Shown: positions 20,809 to 30,036, counted from the stretch's first letter. The stretch is 30,810 bases of DNA from Candidatus Thorarchaeota archaeon (GCA_046758445.1 JBHIAE010000033.1:1-30810), one strand, 5' to 3'. Translations and numbers: made by a program. Notes: generated from the sequence alone by a model not told the origin.

Positions 20809-22539
20809 CTAAGGGCCATACAAACCTCGAACCTCTCTAACGACAAGACCAGGTAGATCCTCCACAGTGTCCACCGGGATTCTCGTTGCTCCGGCTCTAG
20901 CCAGGGCTCTCTCGACCTTGTTACTCAGGCCATAGTACTGCGAGCCAATATGAAAGATGATGAACTTGTGTCCACGTTTCGTTATCTCAGAGATCGACTT
21001 CACGAAACGGTCCCAGTTGGCAATCTCGGCGTCAGTTACCATGATAATCATGACATTGGACTCAGCGGCGTCGCACTTCTCGCGCATCTTCTTTGTGGGA
21101 GCCTGCGTTCCACCCCCCTGATAAGCGAGCAGAACTCTCTCAATTGTGGCTCTCTCTCTTGACCAATCGCACTCACGAGTCCCGTCGGAGAAGTTTATGG
21201 CGGCAACCCTGCAACCCTTACGAAGGACTAGATCCATCGCCGCAAAAGCGGACAAAAGTGCGGTGTGATAGGGCCCGGATACTCGTTTGGAGCTCATGGA
21301 CCAAGTCATGGAACCACTTGAATCAATCACAAGTAGCATGTCAGGGAGTGATTCTAGGTCCGAGTCAGTGGAAGTCTGTGTTCTTAGCCATCTCCGGGTG
21401 GACATGTTTGGCACAAGTATTGGGAATGCTTGCAGGCTCTGTACAATGTCGAGCTCTTCTACAGGGTCCCCCAGTCTCCATGTCTGCAGGCTCAAAGGGA
21501 GCTCTCCAACCTTCTTCCTATCACGCACTTCAATCCGGAGAAGTCCTCGAACTTTCGCTCTATACCAGAAGCGGGTCCAGTCTTTTGTCTTTGACCCGAT
21601 ACCTGCTATGAGATAGACACCTTCTAACTCCTTTGGGTCTCCACCACGCCGCTCGACTTCAATAGCTATCCGCTCCATGTCGCGTTCGATGTCGTGTTCA
21701 TCACCGCCATCCATGCACCTACGAGCCATGTCACCATTTCTTATCTCAACAGGATTGCCCATTACAGCGTCCACATCAAGGGGAACTTGAATTACACCGT
21801 TTTCGTCAAAAGCCGAGTTGGCGCCACCCGACAGAGAGACACCTCCACAACCTGCCAAGGATTCTTCTGCTTCGGGTTGCCATTCTGCCATGATCTTGGC
21901 TATCGCCTCTACTGCTCTGGGCCATTTACTCTCCGCGTCAATGTGTTTTCGTGAGACGGCCACAATGGCTTCTGCTGCCTCATAGGTTCGTTCATCCACC
22001 TTCACTGAGGTTGGGAGAGAGAATCCCCACATTGCTCGATAGCACGATACAATGAGATTCCAGAGCATACTGTGAGCTTGCCCCATCATTGCAGAACCGA
22101 ATATGTTGGCTGTGATACGGTCATGAGTGACACGGGGGTATCTCTTGAGCAAGGCAGAGTCCACCACGACGTCTGCAAAGAGATTGCATACGAACATTGC
22201 CGTTGCATCACTAACATGCCGACGTGCGGCTGCGAACATCATCCCGTTAGTCACCGCGTCGTAAGGGCAGATGAGATAATGCTGCATCTCATGTTGACAC
22301 ACAGACCGTAGGAACGGCTCTGTTTCGCTCATGTCAAGATGAGGAGGGACTCCCGCAGTGTTGAGATGCACCGTCCAGTCATCGGTGTCGATGTAGAAGT
22401 AGCTGCTAGCTCCTTCCTTATGCTCAACGACAACGTCTGGAAGTGGTGGGTGATAGAAGTCAGCCAAAGCCTGAATCCAAGCCCTGTTGGCCGCCTCTCC
22501 GAGTTGGGAGCTTCTGTGGGAATCTGAAACCATTCTCAT
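20809..22539 (-). CDS. VWA domain protein with N-terminal HExxH metallopeptidase-like domain
   Basis: QHEMQHY followed by NLFADVVVD. C-terminal MIDAS elements IDSSGSM, GGGT and MVTDAE. Confidence 0.85.
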   Translation of the reverse strand: MRMVSDSHRSSQLGEAANRAWIQALADFYHPPLPDVVVEHKEGASSYFYIDTDDWTVHLNTAGVPPHLDMSETEPFLRSVCQHEMQHYLICPYDAVTNGMMFAAARRHVSDATAMFVCNLFADVVVDSALLKRYPRVTHDRITANIFGSAMMGQAHSMLWNLIVSCYRAMWGFSLPTSVKVDERTYEAAEAIVAVSRKHIDAESKWPRAVEAIAKIMAEWQPEAEESLAGCGGVSLSGGANSAFDENGVIQVPLDVDAVMGNPVEIRNGDMARRCMDGGDEHDIERDMERIAIEVERRGGDPKELEGVYLIAGIGSKTKDWTRFWYRAKVRGLLRIEVRDRKKVGELPLSLQTWRLGDPVEELDIVQSLQAFPILVPNMSTRRWLRTQTSTDSDLESLPDMLLVIDSSGSMTWSMSSKRVSGPYHTALLSAFAAMDLVLRKGCRVAAINFSDGTRECDWSRERATIERVLLAYQGGGTQAPTKKMREKCDAAESNVMIIMVTDAEIANWDRFVKSISEITKRGHKFIIFHIGSQYYGLSNKVERALARAGATRIPVDTVEDLPGLVVREVRGLYGP

Positions 22540-22551
22540 CTACTGACTCAC

Positions 22552-24264
22552 CTATTCTCGAAGATTAGCCTCAATCTCTTGTCGTACCTCAACAGCCTCG
22601 GTTCCTCCAGATATCTCAAGGAAGACAGAAGAGTCAGGAGAGTCACCTGTGACATAGATAACCAACGTTAGACCATTTGTCCTCACGACTTTTCGTTTTG
22701 GAGGCTCCAGCGTTTCCTTGAGGATTCCGGTCATCTTCGGGAACCTGAGACTGATAATGGTCCAGAGCTCCTTCCACTGCTCAAAGGTCAAGTTGAACTG
22801 AGACAATGTTAGTCTGTGGAGGGCCTCCGAAACTCTGTTGAGCAGGACACTTCTGTTCGGAAATTCAGTGTCCTTCATGAGATCATTGTGGACCTCAGTA
22901 AGTTTCTCCACGTCACGGTTTGCGACTCCCTTGTCAATGGCCTGAACTACTCTAACATACCGTTTCTTCTTTAGCTCCTTTGCAAACTCGACATAGTCAA
23001 TCTTCACGAGAAGATCGCTCTTCGCCATCTCTTTGAGTTCGTCGATGGCGTCCTTTGGAGCTGCTCCCTTTCGAAGCCTGTCCATCAGACCTATGGCTGC
23101 TTCTCGCTGTGCAAAGCGAGCCGACGCAAGCTCTACGAGATGCTGTGTGAAGACGAATCTGTCACCATAGAAAGGCGACCGTTCAATCTCATCGTTTGTG
23201 AACCTTGTTCTATGCCAAAACACAAGAGGTGCTAAGGACTTGACGAGCTCGACACTGACCTCGCTTGTCCCAACGAGCCACGCAGCGGCCTTGCAATATC
23301 GATTCAAGTCCTTTGCGGCTCGGACACTTAGAGGAAGAACAACCTTGTTGCATACACTCTTTGCCGTATTGAAATGGCATCCATCGCATAGACCTGACTC
23401 TACTGTAAGCTCGTGTGACTGACTCTTGTCTACCCTAATGCAAGCTCCGAATTCTCTGACAAGCGAACGCATGTACTCTGAGGCTGCAGGTGAAACTGGT
23501 TTCTTGTCTGCCAGGTTCCAAATCGTCAGAAGGTCTTCCTCGCTCATTAGGGCCGGCACTTGCCACAACTCGTCATAGCCGAACAGGCGTTCGTCTCTTG
23601 ACGCCAATACCAACTCAAGGTCACTAATTGTCGGCATGGTGATTGGGACTGCTACACCAAATCTGTCGAGAAACGGGGGAGCCATTTCGAAGGTGCCAGC
23701 ATCAGAGGGGTTGAGGGTCGCAAATAGACAATACTCTTCGCATCTCTTGACCTCGTCGTAGTACTTTAGCTCCCCTTCAGCGAGCATTGAGAGTAGAATA
23801 TTCTGTGCATGAGGAGTGAGTCTATTGATCTCGTCCAAGATCTTCCAGAAGCCCGTGACGAACTTTCTCCATACCACGACCTCCACACCTTCCTTCATGA
23901 GTGGGCCCGGTCGAAGAGTCGCAACCATTTTCTCCTCAGTGAGTTGAGGATGCCCTCTCAGCATTCCATCTTCAATCTCATGCAGACTTCTACCGGTCAT
24001 CATTCTACCTAATAGCTTGACCAGTGTGGTCTTTCCTCCGCCATGACCACCAATGAGAAGCATAGCTGAGCGGGGCACGAGTGCATTGAGGACGCATGCT
24101 CCTATGATCAGAGGAAGGCGTTTTGCCATCACTTTGTCCTTGGACTTGACTGGTTCTTTGAACCTTATTGCCAAATCCGTGGAATGAACAAAGAGACCTC
24201 TGCTCTCTACAGTCGTTATGACATTCCATACGCGCTCACGAAGGCTGTCTGCAGGTTTGCTCAT
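22552..24264 (-). CDS. MoxR-type AAA+ ATPase
   Basis: Walker A GGHGGGKTT, Walker B ILDEINR, ATLNP and FLDRF, immediately upstream of the VWA gene. Confidence 0.88.
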   Translation of the reverse strand: MSKPADSLRERVWNVITTVESRGLFVHSTDLAIRFKEPVKSKDKVMAKRLPLIIGACVLNALVPRSAMLLIGGHGGGKTTLVKLLGRMMTGRSLHEIEDGMLRGHPQLTEEKMVATLRPGPLMKEGVEVVVWRKFVTGFWKILDEINRLTPHAQNILLSMLAEGELKYYDEVKRCEEYCLFATLNPSDAGTFEMAPPFLDRFGVAVPITMPTISDLELVLASRDERLFGYDELWQVPALMSEEDLLTIWNLADKKPVSPAASEYMRSLVREFGACIRVDKSQSHELTVESGLCDGCHFNTAKSVCNKVVLPLSVRAAKDLNRYCKAAAWLVGTSEVSVELVKSLAPLVFWHRTRFTNDEIERSPFYGDRFVFTQHLVELASARFAQREAAIGLMDRLRKGAAPKDAIDELKEMAKSDLLVKIDYVEFAKELKKKRYVRVVQAIDKGVANRDVEKLTEVHNDLMKDTEFPNRSVLLNRVSEALHRLTLSQFNLTFEQWKELWTIISLRFPKMTGILKETLEPPKRKVVRTNGLTLVIYVTGDSPDSSVFLEISGGTEAVEVRQEIEANLRE

Positions 24265-24338
24265 TGGGAATCAAGTTCATGCAAAAGGGATATGCCTTAA
24301 CACTTGTGCAAAGACTGGGCAGGGAGGCGCGGAATCTT

Positions 24339-25475
24339 GTGACCTTCGAAGACATAATATGTACAAATGATTTGGACGGAGTGGCCAAGACGGTGGGTAA
24401 CACTGTGGGTGAAGAAGAGACCTACACGGATACTGTGCTTCTTGTCACTCCTGAGGAGATGCCAAGAGAACGAATCAGTCAATACTCCGTAGAGGAACAT
24501 GCCAAAGAGTTCTACAGAAGTCTACTCCGATTCAAAGAGGTGAAGGACCAACTGGCCGACACGGGCATAGAGTTCGGCGGCCGTGTCTTACTGATCGGCT
24601 GCGTTGGAAGTGACTTTGAGGCCTTCGTACATCTTTTGGCTCGCGAAACGCCCCTAAACGTAGTTCGCATTCGATTGGAGCGTTTGCTGAGCATATCACG
24701 AACGGCTGCCGATTCCATGGGCATGCTATTTGAGTTCGCGAGAAGAAATGCACCCAGCATTCTATACTTGGAAAGGCTTGAGAGTCTGGCAGAACCGAAT
24801 TCACAAGAGTCTGTCATACTCTCTTTGGAGCTGCAGAAGACCACCTGGGATGAAGATGAGGTGATTGTGATTGCCTCGACATCGAAACCCGACCAAGTAG
24901 ACGTAGAAACACTTTCGGCTTTTGATAGAACATACGTTTCCGAGTCCACAACAATCGAAGACAGAATCCGCATGCTGGAATCCGTGTTGGGGGGACGAAA
25001 GGACCTGGATCCTACAACTATTGCAGAACTAACAGAAGGCTGGAGCTTCCAAGAGATGAAGCATCTTGCAGTCATTCTAGTCATGACAGAGGCCAGCAAG
25101 GAGGAGCAAGTATCCCGAGAGAAAATGGAGGAGACTATCGAGAACAGCATGGTAGTCCCAGCGTCAAGGAAACGGGCCTTGGGCCACCTCATTTCCCGGG
25201 TCGAAGGGCGGCAGCCGCCCGGATTGGATGCCACAGAACGAGTCTATCCGGATGACTTCTTGGACCAACTCTACCTCATGGCAGTCGGGGACGACTATCA
25301 ACAGACTCAGAGAGTGATTGAAACGCTGAACTCTGGTCTCCCTCTCTCTGTCCAGGATTACGAATTCCTAGGCAATTACCCCTTCCTGCTGAAGGGTTCT
25401 CCCGAGGATCGACTTACAAGATTGTTGAGGGCGAAGAAGAGCAATGATAGATTGCGTAGAATAATGGGGAGATAG
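24339..25475 (+). CDS. Degenerate (probably inactive) classical AAA+ ATPase-like protein
   Basis: The scaffold VTFEDI, VLLIG, LFEFARRNAPSILYL, VIVIAST.KPD.VD, FDR, R.RML, IAELTEGWS is of CDC48/Vps4/FtsH type, but the Walker motifs are altered. GTG 24339 after GGAGG is preferred over 24264. Confidence 0.8.
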   Translation: MTFEDIICTNDLDGVAKTVGNTVGEEETYTDTVLLVTPEEMPRERISQYSVEEHAKEFYRSLLRFKEVKDQLADTGIEFGGRVLLIGCVGSDFEAFVHLLARETPLNVVRIRLERLLSISRTAADSMGMLFEFARRNAPSILYLERLESLAEPNSQESVILSLELQKTTWDEDEVIVIASTSKPDQVDVETLSAFDRTYVSESTTIEDRIRMLESVLGGRKDLDPTTIAELTEGWSFQEMKHLAVILVMTEASKEEQVSREKMEETIENSMVVPASRKRALGHLISRVEGRQPPGLDATERVYPDDFLDQLYLMAVGDDYQQTQRVIETLNSGLPLSVQDYEFLGNYPFLLKGSPEDRLTRLLRAKKSNDRLRRIMGR

Positions 25476-25489
25476 TTGGTGGTGGAAGG

Positions 25490-28400
25490 GTGAGCACGTC
25501 AAGGGCCCATATCGACTCGGTTCGACTGAAGAACTTCCTCTCATTCTATGAAGGAACCGTTCAGTTCGACTCCGGACTCACCGTCATTATTGGACCAAAT
25601 GGTTCCGGGAAGACATCGATCTTCCATGCCATGAAATTCGCCCTTGGCTCAAATCAGAGAGAGGCTCGCTATCCGAAATGGAGTGATTTCATCCGCCACG
25701 GAGCTGCGGGTGCAGAGGTCGAGCTCACTGTTTCAAATGACGGGAGCATACACCGTTTCTTGAGAAGGATAGACAGGGATGGCATTCCTCGAGCTTTTGT
25801 AGATGGAAGGCGAGTAAAGGCTGCAGAACTCAGACGACTTGTGAGCTCCCTTGGATTGGACATTGATAACACCTTGGTCTTCATGCCACAAGAACGAATC
25901 AATGCTCTTCGGGATATGAACCCAGTCGAAGTACGCAGGCTCGTTGAGGAGGGCACGGGCCTGAGTGAGATACGAGACCGCATCTCCATCCAAGAAGCTG
26001 AAGTACTGATTAGTCAACAGAAGCTAAGAGAGGCACTTGATGAATCGAGAGTAGTCGAAAGGGAGATTGATCTGCTCAGACACGATCTTGACCGCCTCAA
26101 GAAGAAGAGAGAGCTCCAGAAACAGGAGAGTCGCCTGGCCATTGAAGTCAAGTGGGCCACTCTCGATGAAGTTCACAGGCGCATCAAGGAAGTCAGGAAG
26201 ACCATTGAAGAGAAGGAATCAGGTCTGGTAAGCATTCTCGATGAGCAGAAGTCGTTAGAGGACCAAAGAAAGGAACATGTGCAAAAAACCTCGACTCTTG
26301 AATCTAGATTGGGCCAAGTCCAAAGAGAAATCGGATCAATAGAAGAAAGGATTGAACAAGAGAAACGGCGAGCTCAGAAGTTGCAGGATGAGAGCAGTAG
26401 TACTCTACAAGAGATTGACCAGCTTAGCCTGGAATTGAAGAAAGAAAAGCAGCTGAAGGTGAAAGCCAAAGAAGACCTTGAGAACGCGATAGCAGCTAAA
26501 GAGGACTTACTTCAGAAGCAGAAGGAGATTCAGGCTGATATCGTGAACAATGAGTCAGAAAGAGATGAGGTTGAGGACGTACTTACTGCTTTTGCCGACT
26601 GGAATGTCAAACGAACAGATGCCTACGTTTCATACAAGTCGCTTCAAAATGAGGTTGAGAAGAAAGACGTCCTGTTAAGAAGTCTGAAGGAGCGACTCTC
26701 AACCGAGGAGGCAGAACTGCAAAGCATTGACAGTAAGTGGTCCCACGTCTGGGAGGCAATGGAGAAGACGAATGAGAAGGAGTTGGCTTTAAGAAAAGGA
26801 CAGCTTGAGAGAGAGATTTCTTCCCTGAATGAGATAAGGTTTAGAGAAACCAGTCTAGTGTCCCGACTTGAAAAGGAAATAGACGACATCAAAGCAAGAC
26901 TCTCAGAAACTTCTGAGAGGATTCCCGCTTCAGTGAGAGAACTGAAGACCTCCATCGATGAACATGAGATGAAGTCCGTATTCGGGCCTGTCTTGGAACT
27001 ATTGACAGTTTCCGAAGAATTGTCTCATGCTGTTGAAGCAGTGTTGCCTCATGGCATGGCCTTTGCTTTCATCGTTCGTGATGAGAACGACCTTGTTTTG
27101 ACGCAGAAGCTGAGGGATAAAGTGGATGCTCCATCTCCCATAATCATGCTTCGCGAGATTGAAGAAAGGATTCCCCGAAAGGAACTGCCCAGTGGACGAG
27201 GTGTAGAGGGCTGGTTGTGGGACACGCTCTCCTTGGACGCCGAAACGAGATCTCTCCTTTCTATGGCCTTCGGAGATTTGGTTCTGACAAGGACAAGCAG
27301 AACAGCTAGTCGTGTAGCGACACGTTATGGTCTTGGAGCAGTATCACTCGATGGTTCATTTGTAGTCCCTGAAACAAACAGGATAGTAAGCTTCCCAAAA
27401 CACGAATCTACAGGCCTCGTGTCCACTGCTCCGCTTCAGACAAGGCTTGCCGAGCTCGAGAGGGATATGGTTCTGGCCCGTAAGAGAACCACCGAAGTGA
27501 TGGCGAAGCTGGACAAGACAACTGGTGAACGAGAAGGAATCATAGAGCTTCTTGCTCAGGCAACGAGATGGAGTAGCACCTGGGAACGCAGAAAGAAACT
27601 CCTTGAAAGCATCCCTGAAATCGAGGAGAGAATTCTTGGCCTCGATGATGAACTAAGGGGCCTGCAAGCGAACTTGGGAAATGCCCAAAGACAGCTTAGG
27701 AAGCTGGATAGCACGCAGCCCCCAGAGAGAAGCAGGCTAGTTGGTCAACGCTCCGCAATACGACTCAAGATTCGAAGACTCCAGGGAGACCTAGGGAAAG
27801 TACAGAGCAGTCTCCGGGATACTGAACAGGCCGAGGAAAAAGGGAGAGGTGAACTCAGGCAGCACGTTGATCATATTGGAATGCTCTCTAACCGGACAAA
27901 AGAACTGAGAGAGGAATTGAAGACATCAAAAAGCGAATCTGCGTCCATAGCAGAATCCATTGGGATATTGAACGACGGCATTGTTGAAACGCAGGCAATT
28001 CAGTCGAAGATACGGGAGGAACTTGCCAGCATCAACGAAGTCGTCCGCTCCATCGGTGAGCGCCTAGTTGAGCTCAGTCTTGTGATCAAGGATAGCAAGC
28101 TCCAAGTCCTTCAGGCGAGAAAACGCTTACGCAACTTAGAGGAAGAGCAGGAACAATTGACGAAGGACCTAGAGGCTGAAGAGAGGCCCCAAATCGTACG
28201 ACCCCTCGAAACTGGCATGGCGGATTTGATACGCGTTCGACATCTACTCGACGACTATCAGGATGTTTCTGAAAGCGTTGCCCACACCGAGTCGCAGCTG
28301 AAGAGCCGTCTGGGTGAGCTGACTGCGCGTGTAGGAGATCTGGAAAAGGAGCTCCAAGAAGCAGAGGCAACCGTGAAGCATATTCGGGAACAGTACCATA

Positions 28401-28861
28401 ATGGAATGAATGCCACACTCTCGAAAGTCGAGAAGAACGTGAACGACATTCTGGCAGGTGTGAGGTTCGCAGGACGAGTGCGTTTCGACCTGGCACTGAG
28501 AGATGGAGTCTATGGCGTGGAGTTCAAGTCCAAGATTCGAGGAGATAAGTACGGCAAGATCAGTCAAGGCTCTGGAGGTGAGCGGTCCCTCATAGCCATT
28601 GGTCTGATTCTAGCTCTTCAGAGGTTCAATCCTGCTCCTGCCTATGCTCTCGATGAAGTCGACATCTTCCTGGATGCTACCAACACTGAATCAGTCAGCA
28701 AGCTGCTCTATGATGCATCACGGAGGAGCCAGTTCATTCTCTTCACGCCTGCGAAGAGTACCCATCTCCTGAAGCATGCAGACAGAAGGATCGGTGTCGT
28801 ATCACCGAGAGGTGTGGATCCGTCTGTGATAATTGAGAGTCCAAAGTTTGTCGAGAACTAG
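25490..28861 (+). CDS. SMC family ATPase, SMC5/6-related
   Basis: Walker A GPNGSGKT, Q-loop VFMPQERI, long coiled coils, a central hinge, signature SGGERS, Walker B/D-loop LDEVDIFLD, and QFILFTP. Confidence 0.93.
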   Translation: MSTSRAHIDSVRLKNFLSFYEGTVQFDSGLTVIIGPNGSGKTSIFHAMKFALGSNQREARYPKWSDFIRHGAAGAEVELTVSNDGSIHRFLRRIDRDGIPRAFVDGRRVKAAELRRLVSSLGLDIDNTLVFMPQERINALRDMNPVEVRRLVEEGTGLSEIRDRISIQEAEVLISQQKLREALDESRVVEREIDLLRHDLDRLKKKRELQKQESRLAIEVKWATLDEVHRRIKEVRKTIEEKESGLVSILDEQKSLEDQRKEHVQKTSTLESRLGQVQREIGSIEERIEQEKRRAQKLQDESSSTLQEIDQLSLELKKEKQLKVKAKEDLENAIAAKEDLLQKQKEIQADIVNNESERDEVEDVLTAFADWNVKRTDAYVSYKSLQNEVEKKDVLLRSLKERLSTEEAELQSIDSKWSHVWEAMEKTNEKELALRKGQLEREISSLNEIRFRETSLVSRLEKEIDDIKARLSETSERIPASVRELKTSIDEHEMKSVFGPVLELLTVSEELSHAVEAVLPHGMAFAFIVRDENDLVLTQKLRDKVDAPSPIIMLREIEERIPRKELPSGRGVEGWLWDTLSLDAETRSLLSMAFGDLVLTRTSRTASRVATRYGLGAVSLDGSFVVPETNRIVSFPKHESTGLVSTAPLQTRLAELERDMVLARKRTTEVMAKLDKTTGEREGIIELLAQATRWSSTWERRKKLLESIPEIEERILGLDDELRGLQANLGNAQRQLRKLDSTQPPERSRLVGQRSAIRLKIRRLQGDLGKVQSSLRDTEQAEEKGRGELRQHVDHIGMLSNRTKELREELKTSKSESASIAESIGILNDGIVETQAIQSKIREELASINEVVRSIGERLVELSLVIKDSKLQVLQARKRLRNLEEEQEQLTKDLEAEERPQIVRPLETGMADLIRVRHLLDDYQDVSESVAHTESQLKSRLGELTARVGDLEKELQEAEATVKHIREQYHNGMNATLSKVEKNVNDILAGVRFAGRVRFDLALRDGVYGVEFKSKIRGDKYGKISQGSGGERSLIAIGLILALQRFNPAPAYALDEVDIFLDATNTESVSKLLYDASRRSQFILFTPAKSTHLLKHADRRIGVVSPRGVDPSVIIESPKFVEN

Positions 28862-28873
28862 GAGAGGAATCGA

Positions 28874-29542
28874 ATGGATCAATTGGAAACTCTGGCACTG
28901 CGTGTTTTCAAACTGGCTGAGTCAGTGCGAGAGGGCAAGGTTGATCCACTTGATTTGAAGCTTACACCTGAGTACAAGGAGCTTCAGGCAATGGTCGCTG
29001 AAGTGGACAAGCGCCTCGACATAGACGAACTGCTTAATGAGATACTCGCTGCCAAGATCTCCCGAGTTCAGGAACTCGCAAAAGTATTGGCATCACCTGA
29101 GCTCTACGTCAACCGACTGAAGGGTACAAAAGCTAGAGAGCTTGCCAAGATGATGTCCTATCATCATCCAATGAGAGTGGCCCACCTTGATCATGAACCA
29201 CTGAACCGAGCATTCGATAGAGTGAGTCGCTTCATTGATGCACTGTCAGCCAGCCCACCTGAGGATAATGCTCCGGATACCGCAGGACTACCAGAAAGCT
29301 ACAGATTCCCGACTGAAGATGCAGTCCTACTAGAGGATGCAGAGCTGTTCGGAGCAAGGATTCCTAAAGGGCAGACTGTTTCACTCGACGAGCTTTTGAA
29401 TAGCGAGAGTTTTGATGAGTTTCTCCGTCGATTTCTGTACGTCGTCATTCTTGTTTCCAGAGGAGTCATCGAATACGATGGGTCATCTCGAACCGTAGTA
29501 AGGGCAGACTCCTCAGAACGGGAGGAGGTAGACGCGTCATGA
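28874..29542 (+). CDS. Kleisin (ScpA/Nse4-like) subunit
   Basis: N-terminal GKVDPLDLKL resembles the ScpA 'DPWDIDI' motif. The C-terminal winged helix reads VSLDELL..FLRRFLYVVILVSRGVIEY. Starts 12 bp after the SMC gene. Confidence 0.75.
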   Translation: MDQLETLALRVFKLAESVREGKVDPLDLKLTPEYKELQAMVAEVDKRLDIDELLNEILAAKISRVQELAKVLASPELYVNRLKGTKARELAKMMSYHHPMRVAHLDHEPLNRAFDRVSRFIDALSASPPEDNAPDTAGLPESYRFPTEDAVLLEDAELFGARIPKGQTVSLDELLNSESFDEFLRRFLYVVILVSRGVIEYDGSSRTVVRADSSEREEVDAS

Positions 29543-30036
29543 ATGAGTATGGACTCCTCATGCGGCTGCTCACACGAACTGGAAACCCGATGGGAGCAGG
29601 AGTTGAGGACATGTTGAGCGCTCTGGGTCTGCCTGAAGACATCGGAAGGCATGTCCTTTTCCAGAAGCTGTCATCACTACATGAGAGTCTGGCACCACTG
29701 GGACTCATAGTAAAGCACAACCCAATAGATCACGTATTCTATGTCGACACAGCGATTCGAGGGACTCACCTCTTCGAAGAGGTGGCGATGCCCGACAGGC
29801 TAGCGGCAACTCTCCTCGTTGTGATAACACTTGCATATCAGGAGGAGGGGTGGGTTTCCATAAGAAGAGTGAGCGAGTTCAGGCGAAAGGCTAGACGTGG
29901 TGTAATGTCAGATTTGAAGGAACTGTCAGTAAAAGGATACATTGAGTTCGATAGCGCAGGCGCAAACGTAAGACCAGGACCAAGGTCTGCCTTCGAGATT
30001 GACTATGATGAGTTCTTCAGAAAGCTCATGGCCTGA
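29539..30036 (+). CDS. KITE subunit (tandem winged helix; Nse1/Nse3-MAGE/ScpB-like)
   Basis: Two wHTH-like halves (L..SLAPLGLIV; L.ELSVKGYI) ending in GPRSAFEID. ATGA overlap with the kleisin gene. Confidence 0.7.
   Translation: MNEYGLLMRLLTRTGNPMGAGVEDMLSALGLPEDIGRHVLFQKLSSLHESLAPLGLIVKHNPIDHVFYVDTAIRGTHLFEEVAMPDRLAATLLVVITLAYQEEGWVSIRRVSEFRRKARRGVMSDLKELSVKGYIEFDSAGANVRPGPRSAFEIDYDEFFRKLMA

Follow-up and report, generated by a model that had tools for sequence, protein, structure and literature searches.

A second SMC operon with its own kleisin and kite in a Thorarchaeote, a probable counterpart of the archaeal SMC5/6-related complex

Archaeal relatives of the eukaryotic SMC5/6 complex have been described in two studies, the first of which defined 80 'SMC5/6-related aSMC', partly from Asgard archaea (Yoshinaga & Inagaki 2021, PMC8665677), while the second reported complete operons in TACK and Asgard archaea, e.g., in Prometheoarchaeum syntrophicum, in which an SMC5/6-related SMC is encoded with a kleisin related to Nse4 and a kite related to Nse1/3 (van Hooff et al., bioRxiv 10.1101/2024.01.07.573240). 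In the latter account Jordarchaeum is scored with SMC, kleisin and kite all as neighbours, whereas for a Thorarchaeia genome the SMCs are given as SMC5/6-related, together with a single Nse1/3-related kite and no Nse4-related kleisin. Here we analysed a stretch of 30,810 nucleotides (the window) from a Candidatus Thorarchaeota archaeon, contig C33 of a 3.25-Mb metagenome-assembled genome (MAG) of 92.7% completeness, in which three consecutive genes at 25490-30036 code for an SMC, a kleisin and a kite. Together with a degenerate AAA+ gene that extends the operon upstream to position 24264, they probably encode a second SMC complex, the counterpart of the SMC5/6-related complex of the archaeal literature.

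A first-pass annotation of this DNA had described SMC5/6-related archaeal proteins as noted phylogenetically, with little functional work known; the three-gene operon itself has already been described for Asgard and TACK archaea (van Hooff et al.). The operon class and its evolutionary point are therefore published, and the Thorarchaeote operon is a further example of a described kind. As in the published operons (PMC8665677; bioRxiv 10.1101/2024.01.07.573240), there is a second SMC in addition to canonical smc-scpAB, a kleisin of its own and a kite that is not ScpB adjoin this SMC, and the distribution covers Asgard archaea including cultured Lokiarchaeia. Two differences emerge within the available portions of these accounts: a Thorarchaeote kleisin is identified here whereas no Nse4-related kleisin is given for the published Thorarchaeia representative, and the upstream dead AAA+ gene and the zinc-ribbon/winged-helix neighbour found in Thorarchaeota are absent from the descriptions. 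Neither TFG29096 nor TXT55943 is among the accessions of the van Hooff et al. supplements.

Two SMC-kleisin-kite sets in one genome

The three genes lie on the plus strand (Table 1) and are tightly coupled, as the first-pass annotation had stated. The SMC gene, starting with GTG, ends in TAG, which is followed by a 12-nt purine-rich, Shine-Dalgarno-like spacer (gagaggaatcga) and the ATG of the kleisin gene, and the stop codon of the kleisin gene overlaps the start codon of the kite gene in an ATGA; both the 12-bp gap and the overlap were verified in the sequence. The nearest relatives of the SMC, of the kleisin and of the kite are all encoded in Thorarchaeota/Promethearchaeota MAGs. A separate canonical smc-scpAB, proposed earlier as something to look for, was found by a six-frame genome search on contig C3 (C3:15929-20691, locus L001), where a canonical smc (1196 aa, 854 bits to TIGR02169) is followed by ScpA (PF02616, 28.9 bits) and ScpB (PF04079, 112 bits). 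The genes at 25490-30036 therefore concern a second SMC system, and the organism has two complete SMC-kleisin-kite sets.

The second SMC matches Pfam SMC_N with 134 bits over residues 8-1105, covering both ends, and its hinge matches SMC_hinge with 38.8 bits (cut-off 22.5). Against TIGR02169 (1165 positions) it aligns end-to-end over residues 7-1108, yet reaches 262.6 bits where the cut-off is 729.4, and against TIGR02168 it scores 260.5 bits (cut-off 567.35). It is a full hinge-type SMC and not a canonical prokaryotic Smc.

All motif strings that had been quoted for this protein were located in its translation, namely LGLDIDNTLVFMPQERI around Q134, SGGERS and QFILFTP in the head, and VFGPVL, AVEAVLP, AFAFIV, END and SLDGSFVVPETN in the hinge. 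The catalytic residues of the head (GPNGSGKT, Q134, SGGE, D1055-E1056 and D1062) are all present and invariant in the family. For comparison of the remaining features we used an alignment of 123 SMCs, in which 40 relatives including this SMC stand against 83 canonical SMCs, with alignment A3 for the family and A4 for the canonical archaeal clade. After the P-loop the 40-member family reads GK[ST] followed by S, A or T, in contrast to GKSN in canonical SMCs; the hinge is entered through GP (G499 and P500 invariant in A3) instead of G[TR]; and the last head strand is followed by an invariant Pro at the QFILFTP position, where canonical SMCs read ITHN or VSLR. The lack of a hinge glycine motif that the first-pass annotation had pointed out also extends to the whole family, the SGxMTGG block being missing in the 40 relatives and present in the 83 canonical SMCs (conserved G660, G671 and G672 in A4). 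Since these features track the split of 40 versus 83 sequences in the alignment, they are real family characters, systematic and not due to chance. Only the contrast drawn earlier with a 'usual' H-loop His needs correction, as this His is usual in bacterial-type Smc only, archaeal canonical Smc, including that of the same genome, reading VSLR.

When 1.84 billion cluster representatives were searched exhaustively with HMMER, only 67 proteins reached E<=1e-30, and the full-length, single-stretch matches with a named origin belonged without exception to Asgard lineages (Thor, Baldr, Jord, Odin, Hel, Hod, Sigyn and Loki). In a maximum-likelihood tree of 123 SMCs over 473 head and hinge columns, built from the long matches together with the canonical Smc encoded in this genome and SMCs from ten further Asgard loci, an Asgard-only clade of 40 rows with this SMC parts from 83 canonical bacterial and archaeal SMCs with an SH-aLRT of 100. 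The genome's own canonical Smc groups among the latter, apart from the second SMC, and the SMCs of a Jordarchaeales cassette (L077) and of Loki-type cassettes fall into the clade of the second SMC. The best 150 representatives were all archaeal or bacterial save two unnamed rows, which are basal in the canonical clade and carry SMC2-like-looking motifs. Placement of the second SMC within canonical Smc or Rad50, raised by the first-pass annotation as a possible outcome, is contradicted by this separation and by low Rad50 scores.

The kite profile was found in 62 of the 151 Asgard genomes searched, among them 22 of 26 genomes of the Thorarchaeote's own family and 23 of 25 of a large second family, and was not found in several other Asgard families of the same set. 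In several of the kite-bearing families ScpB co-occurs with the kite family. Within one further Thorarchaeote MAG (JAEOUM01, isolate FT5_021), two separate contigs (L029 and L030) each carry a second SMC with a kleisin, the copies having 54-55% identity to this SMC, which points either to a genuine duplication or to a bin of mixed strains.

Kleisin and kite as probable subunits of the second SMC complex

Neither of the two small open reading frames (ORFs) downstream of the SMC gene, of 222 aa and 165 aa, gave a meaningful match in Pfam, NCBIfam, PADLOC or PDB sequence searches, and the relatives of the 222-aa ORF recovered by word search were all annotated as 'hypothetical'. Searching PDB sequences with alignments A1, A2, A5 and A6 likewise returned sub-threshold rows only (the ScpA C-terminal winged-helix domain, C-WHD, at E 0.056 and 0.1; an Lrs14 winged helix at 0.0086).

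The 222-aa ORF is a kleisin, both by homology and by fold. Its AlphaFold2 (AF2) model begins with a helical domain, continues through a linker of low confidence and closes with a winged helix at the C terminus, and among 48,161 PDB chains compared by VIA-align the top match of this C-WHD, and the sole one at Z>=8, was the C-WHD of Smc-head-bound ScpA (4i99_C; Z 8.1, rmsd 2.0, 61 aa, 20% identity), followed by Scc1-C (Z 6.7 and 6.5) and CAP-H2 (Z 6.2). The weak top rows of Foldseek comprised the Smc5/6 entries 7tve_G and 7qcd_F as well as ScpA, Scc1, CAP-H2 and chains of Wadjet JetABC entries. When an Asgard-wide alignment of kleisin genes in the same position (A6) was compared by hhalign with 30 Asgard ScpA from canonical operons, the match reached 93.7% (E 2e-7, 191 columns), against 0.3% for the ScpB control. 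The kleisin fold which the first-pass annotation had expected of this ORF is thus borne out, its best structural match being of the ScpA type.

The 165-aa ORF is a kite, likewise by homology and fold, in line with the earlier expectation. Its AF2 model (pLDDT 81.9) consists of two winged-helix domains, and the significant Foldseek rows (1e-5 to 8e-4) included ScpB 2z99 (1e-5), ScpAB 3w6j, the chains 8as8_C and 8dk1_E of Wadjet JetABC entries, MAGE-G1/Nse1 5hvq_D, MukE 3rpu_D and Nse1-Nse3-Nse4 7dg2, i.e. tandem winged helices of the ScpB, MukE and Nse1/Nse3 type. VIA-align returned mostly generic single winged helices, both domains being covered by 7dg2_A only. The kite family alignment (A5) matched Asgard ScpB by hhalign at 72.1% (E 3.4e-5, 154 columns; ScpA control 0.4%), and neither fold nor profile tells 'Nse1/3-like' from 'ScpB-like' for this protein. 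There is no RING, as the protein ends at residue 165. Four members of the kite family showed weak matches to Pfam DUF4194 (best E 0.0018), which we take to be the JetB/MksE kite family. A GPR..E motif in the wing, presumably MAGE-like, occurs in Thorarchaeote kites only, the aligned kites from Loki, Jord and other Asgard lineages lacking it; because of this restriction it was rejected as a MAGE synapomorphy.

As a side observation, a 52-residue fragment matching the kite N-terminus (G137:C8:66452-66607) lies just upstream of a full kite at 67251-67748, which suggests a partial duplication or a remnant beside the intact gene.

Relation to SMC5/6 and competing readings

The central claim of the first-pass annotation, a second, non-canonical SMC encoded with its own kleisin and kite, is supported by profile, fold and tree evidence. 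With the eukaryotic SMC5/6 core (Smc5-Smc6, Nse4 as kleisin, Nse1/Nse3 as kites) this set shares the combination of SMC, kleisin and tandem-winged-helix kites without HAWKs, a hinge that lacks the canonical glycine block, an SMC shorter than the canonical one of the genome (1123 versus 1196 aa) and fold matches to Nse1/Nse3/MAGE and to the Smc5/6 entries named above. In SMC5/6 proteins the P-loop reading is GKS[SA], and the last strand is followed by ..TP[KQ]. The Thorarchaeote locus differs in having one SMC gene and one kite gene, for which homodimers would be expected, in the missing RING on the kite, in that no Nse2 or Nse5/6 homologues were seen, and in small subunits without significant matches to the Nse4, Nse1 and MAGE models. 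The lone SMC gene and lone kite gene fit the homodimeric, single-kite composition that had been proposed.

The family profiles were further searched against PDB chain sequences. Profile A3, of the second SMC family, gave 299 bits for SMC2, 288 for SMC3, 260 for SMC4, 255 for SMC1, 210 for SMC5 and 203 for SMC6, whereas profile A4, of the canonical archaeal clade, gave 577, 569, 613 and 550 bits for SMC2, SMC3, SMC4 and SMC1, 138 for SMC5 and below 127 for SMC6. SMC5/6 chains thus lie at 210-172 bits by the family profile versus <=138 bits by the canonical one, and by this relative measure the family appears clearly shifted toward SMC5/6 compared with canonical Smc, although in raw similarity it seemingly lies no nearer to SMC5/6 than to SMC1-4. 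What supports the SMC5/6 label is accordingly the published phylogenies, and a sister relation to eukaryotic SMC5/6 would be taken from the literature only.

Several observations weigh against this reading of the operon. The family profile ranks SMC2, SMC3, SMC4 and SMC1 (299-227 bits) over SMC5/6, and our tree took in no eukaryotic SMC5/6 sequence. The AF2 model of the kleisin is moderate (pLDDT 66.5, pTM 0.29) and its Foldseek E-values are around 0.1, with no row below E 0.1. No match to the Pfam Nse4 models (PF08743, Nse4_C; PF15412) or to ScpA was obtained for the 222-aa ORF, nor any Pfam match at E<=1 in 19 family members, and among 20 kite members no match to Pfam MAGE (PF01454), SMC_Nse1 (PF07574) or ScpB (PF04079) was found, the last of these unlike the genome's true ScpB. 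The hhalign comparisons point to ScpA and ScpB. In most Thorarchaeota, finally, an opposite-strand gene for a major facilitator superfamily (MFS) transporter splits the kleisin from the kite (gap ~0.5 to 3 kb), the kite therefore not being co-transcribable with SMC and kleisin in those genomes, and the fully coupled arrangement of this genome is in the minority among Thorarchaeota. Of the earlier SMC5/6-like reading, the non-canonical SMC with its relative profile shift stands, SMC1-4 scoring higher than SMC5/6; of the Nse4 and Nse1/3 identities, a kleisin and a tandem-winged-helix kite stand, with profiles that match ScpA and ScpB and not Nse4, MAGE or Nse1.

The strongest alternative is a divergent, Asgard-specific duplicate of Smc-ScpAB, making a second condensin-like complex with no special tie to SMC5/6, in which the motifs would be convergent or ancestral and the published grouping a long-branch effect. 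Such a duplicate would agree with the three-part architecture, with kleisin and kite as detectable profile homologues of ScpA (93.7%) and ScpB (72.1%) and of nothing eukaryotic, with the Smc-head-bound ScpA as best structural match of the kleisin C-WHD and with the preference of the SMC profile for SMC1-4; it would also agree with the confinement of the GPR..E wing to Thorarchaeote kites, Loki-type kites of the same family lacking it, and in the published work itself a monophyletic origin of all eukaryotic SMCs was not rejected (p-AU 0.317). On the other hand, the second SMC stays under the SMC_prok cut-offs, forms a separate clade with distinct head and hinge motifs and coexists with a bona fide smc-scpA-scpB, and its small ORFs have no Pfam ScpA or ScpB match. 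Moreover, two independent phylogenies put the second archaeal SMC with SMC5/6 (PMC8665677; bioRxiv 10.1101/2024.01.07.573240), published phylogenies put non-ScpB archaeal kites with Nse1/3, and the profile shift described above goes in the same direction. Two further leads bear on the kleisin, which a language model relates to a Bathyarchaeota cluster (0.94; Nse4_C on 18% of members) and a eukaryote Nse4_C cluster (0.86), and which structurally recalls EID3/Nse4 (TM 0.48). We regard a mere duplicate of Smc-ScpAB as unlikely.

Far less probable is a Wadjet/MksBEF-like defence system restricting plasmids or viruses, a role which the first-pass annotation had considered as surveillance. Eukaryotic SMC5/6 restricts extrachromosomal DNA, the Wadjet JetABCD and MksBEFG systems also combine an SMC-family ATPase with a kleisin and a kite, and both the DUF4194 matches in four kite-family members and the chains of JetABC entries among the kite fold matches would be in keeping with such a function. 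However, no JetD/MksG-type nuclease or other effector was seen in the cassette or in the flanking genes scanned, the PADLOC models were blank for kleisin and kite and gave the SMC only 32 bits on JetC, the SMC is hinge-type and not MukB-type, and fixed synteny, which sets the locus apart from a mobile defence island, is kept across Asgard families and in 22 of 26 genomes of its own family.

A Rad50-, ASRP- or ClsN/arcadin-type SMC-like ATPase with unrelated neighbours, not forming a ring, can practically be set aside, since the weak NCBIfam matches that could suggest it (ASRP 127.9 bits, Rad50 <=79.7 bits, arcadin-4 52.6 bits) remain far under their cut-offs and under the end-to-end SMC match of 262.6 bits, a Pfam SMC hinge is present without a zinc hook, and both profile and fold identify the neighbours as kleisin and kite; the Rad50, ASRP and arcadin identities were accordingly rejected on scores and hinge presence. 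The genes at 24264-30036 are thus best read, with good probability, as a second SMC complex corresponding to the archaeal SMC5/6-related one.

Gene neighbourhood, proposed assembly and significance

Table 1. Features of the second SMC operon and its 3' neighbour (positions in the window)
Feature	Coordinates	Strand	Evidence or remark
Degenerate AAA+ (Cdc48/FtsH-type), first gene of the operon	24264..25475	+	Pfam AAA 33.6 bits; start codon uncertain
Divergent hinge-type SMC ATPase, 1123 aa, the genome's second SMC	25490..28861	+	SMC_N, SMC_hinge, TIGR02169, tree
Walker A GPNGSGKTS (residues 35-43)	25592..25618	+	G35, G40 and K41 family-invariant
Q-loop VFMPQERI (residues 130-137)	25877..25900	+	Q134 invariant
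Hinge domain (residues 495-609)	26972..27316	+	Pfam SMC_hinge; VFGPVL entry, without SGxMTGG block
Signature motif SGGERS (residues 1028-1033)	28571..28588	+	S1028 and G1030 invariant
Walker B and D-loop YALDEVDIFLD (residues 1052-1062)	28643..28675	+	D1055, E1056 and D1062 invariant
Last head strand QFILFTP (residues 1081-1087)	28730..28750	+	Pro1087 invariant, family-specific
Kleisin, 222 aa: helical domain at the N terminus, linker, winged helix at the C terminus	28874..29542	+	AF2, VIA-align, hhalign
Kite, 165 aa: two winged-helix domains, no RING	29539..30036	+	AF2, Foldseek, hhalign
TFIIB-type zinc-ribbon and winged-helix protein, 119 aa	30097..30456	+	Pfam Zn_Ribbon_TF 34.8 bits

The gene upstream of the SMC ends 14 bp before the SMC start; its own start is uncertain, the TTG at 24264 giving the longest ORF and a later start being likely. 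The product has its best PDB phmmer match in p97/Cdc48 D2 (42 bits), with Walker A (GCVGSDFE) and Walker B (ILYLERLE) both dead, and the Walker A lysine is lost in all ten Asgard homologues aligned. The best-conserved part is a C-terminal helical region of ~75 residues and not the AAA core. Of 33 Thorarchaeote loci, the 28 whose upstream DNA is covered have this gene directly upstream of the SMC, as has each of ten loci from five further Asgard families (L074-L083), and a 4-bp AAA+/SMC overlap is found in both junctions read. The order AAA-SMC-kleisin-kite is retained in Thorarchaeote loci and in the same 10/10 loci. The 'complete minimal' complex claimed by the first-pass annotation is therefore not minimal, because across Asgard families the SMC gene is preceded by one for a catalytically dead AAA+ protein, and in the available portions of the published accounts of the archaeal SMC5/6-related complex this conserved dead AAA+ is the sole element that goes unmentioned. 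Tentatively, and with somewhat less than even confidence, the second SMC complex could be a four-subunit machine, with the dead AAA+ protein binding the SMC-kleisin-kite core as a loader or ATPase regulator. In eukaryotes, Nse5/6 fills a loader/regulator role through an unrelated fold.

On the 3' side, a zinc-ribbon/winged-helix gene starts 60 bp after the kite; it is located downstream of the kite in the Thorarchaeote loci reaching that far and in the same-order locus L079, its product being 62-87% identical across Thorarchaeales loci, and was not found in nine loci fetched from other Asgard orders. This TFIIB-ribbon/winged-helix protein may be a further partner of the complex in Thorarchaeales. 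The MFS gene that intervenes between kleisin and kite in other Thorarchaeota (PF07690, 106.8 bits) was located at L013:8068-9420 on the minus strand and likewise in L015, L016, L021, L024 and L028. In the window, two large minus-strand ORFs (576 and 570 aa; 20809-24264) diverge from the start of the AAA+ gene.

From the composition of the operon we infer an assembly in which the SMC would homodimerise through its hinge, the kleisin would connect one SMC head, at its neck, with the other, at its cap, and the tandem-winged-helix kite, probably as a dimer, would sit on the middle of the kleisin, the dead AAA+ protein being a putative fourth subunit with a regulatory or loading role. Since the residues of Walker A, Q-loop, signature, Walker B and D-loop are intact, such a ring should bind and hydrolyse ATP and would, most likely by the mechanism general to SMC complexes, clamp, entrap or extrude DNA. 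It may serve chromosome maintenance or repair beside canonical Smc-ScpAB; the surveillance of plasmids and viruses proposed earlier is disfavoured, there being no nuclease partner, no defence-model match for the small ORFs and a locus that is syntenic in most relatives. A prediction of the complex from four chains (the SMC as residues 1-230 and residues 900-1123, the kite and, as the partner scored, the kleisin) gave 0.55 against 0.33 for the best control, which the predictor rates as weak support, at least 43% of contacts agreeing between runs and the partner having a pLDDT of at least 51. In calibration, 58 of 80 solved complexes and 2 of 110 mismatches reached the mark, the range of 0.60 or under being occupied by 7 of the 80 solved complexes and by both passing mismatches. 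As Smc-ScpA complexes have already been solved, this pass may partly be memory, and we give it little weight.

Asgard archaea are the closest known relatives of eukaryotes, and a compact, homodimeric, single-kite relative of SMC5/6 would be a natural model for the origin of the eukaryotic repair and restriction SMC complex. The yeast SMC5/6 complex has eight subunits, and the Asgard complex would be far simpler to reconstitute; since the SMC family includes the cultured Lokiarchaeum ossiferum, experimental follow-up is possible. To the described operon class, the present locus adds a clean, fully coupled Thorarchaeote example with a very divergent kleisin now identified, independent profile and fold evidence for its subunits, and a dead AAA+ protein shown to travel with the cassette.

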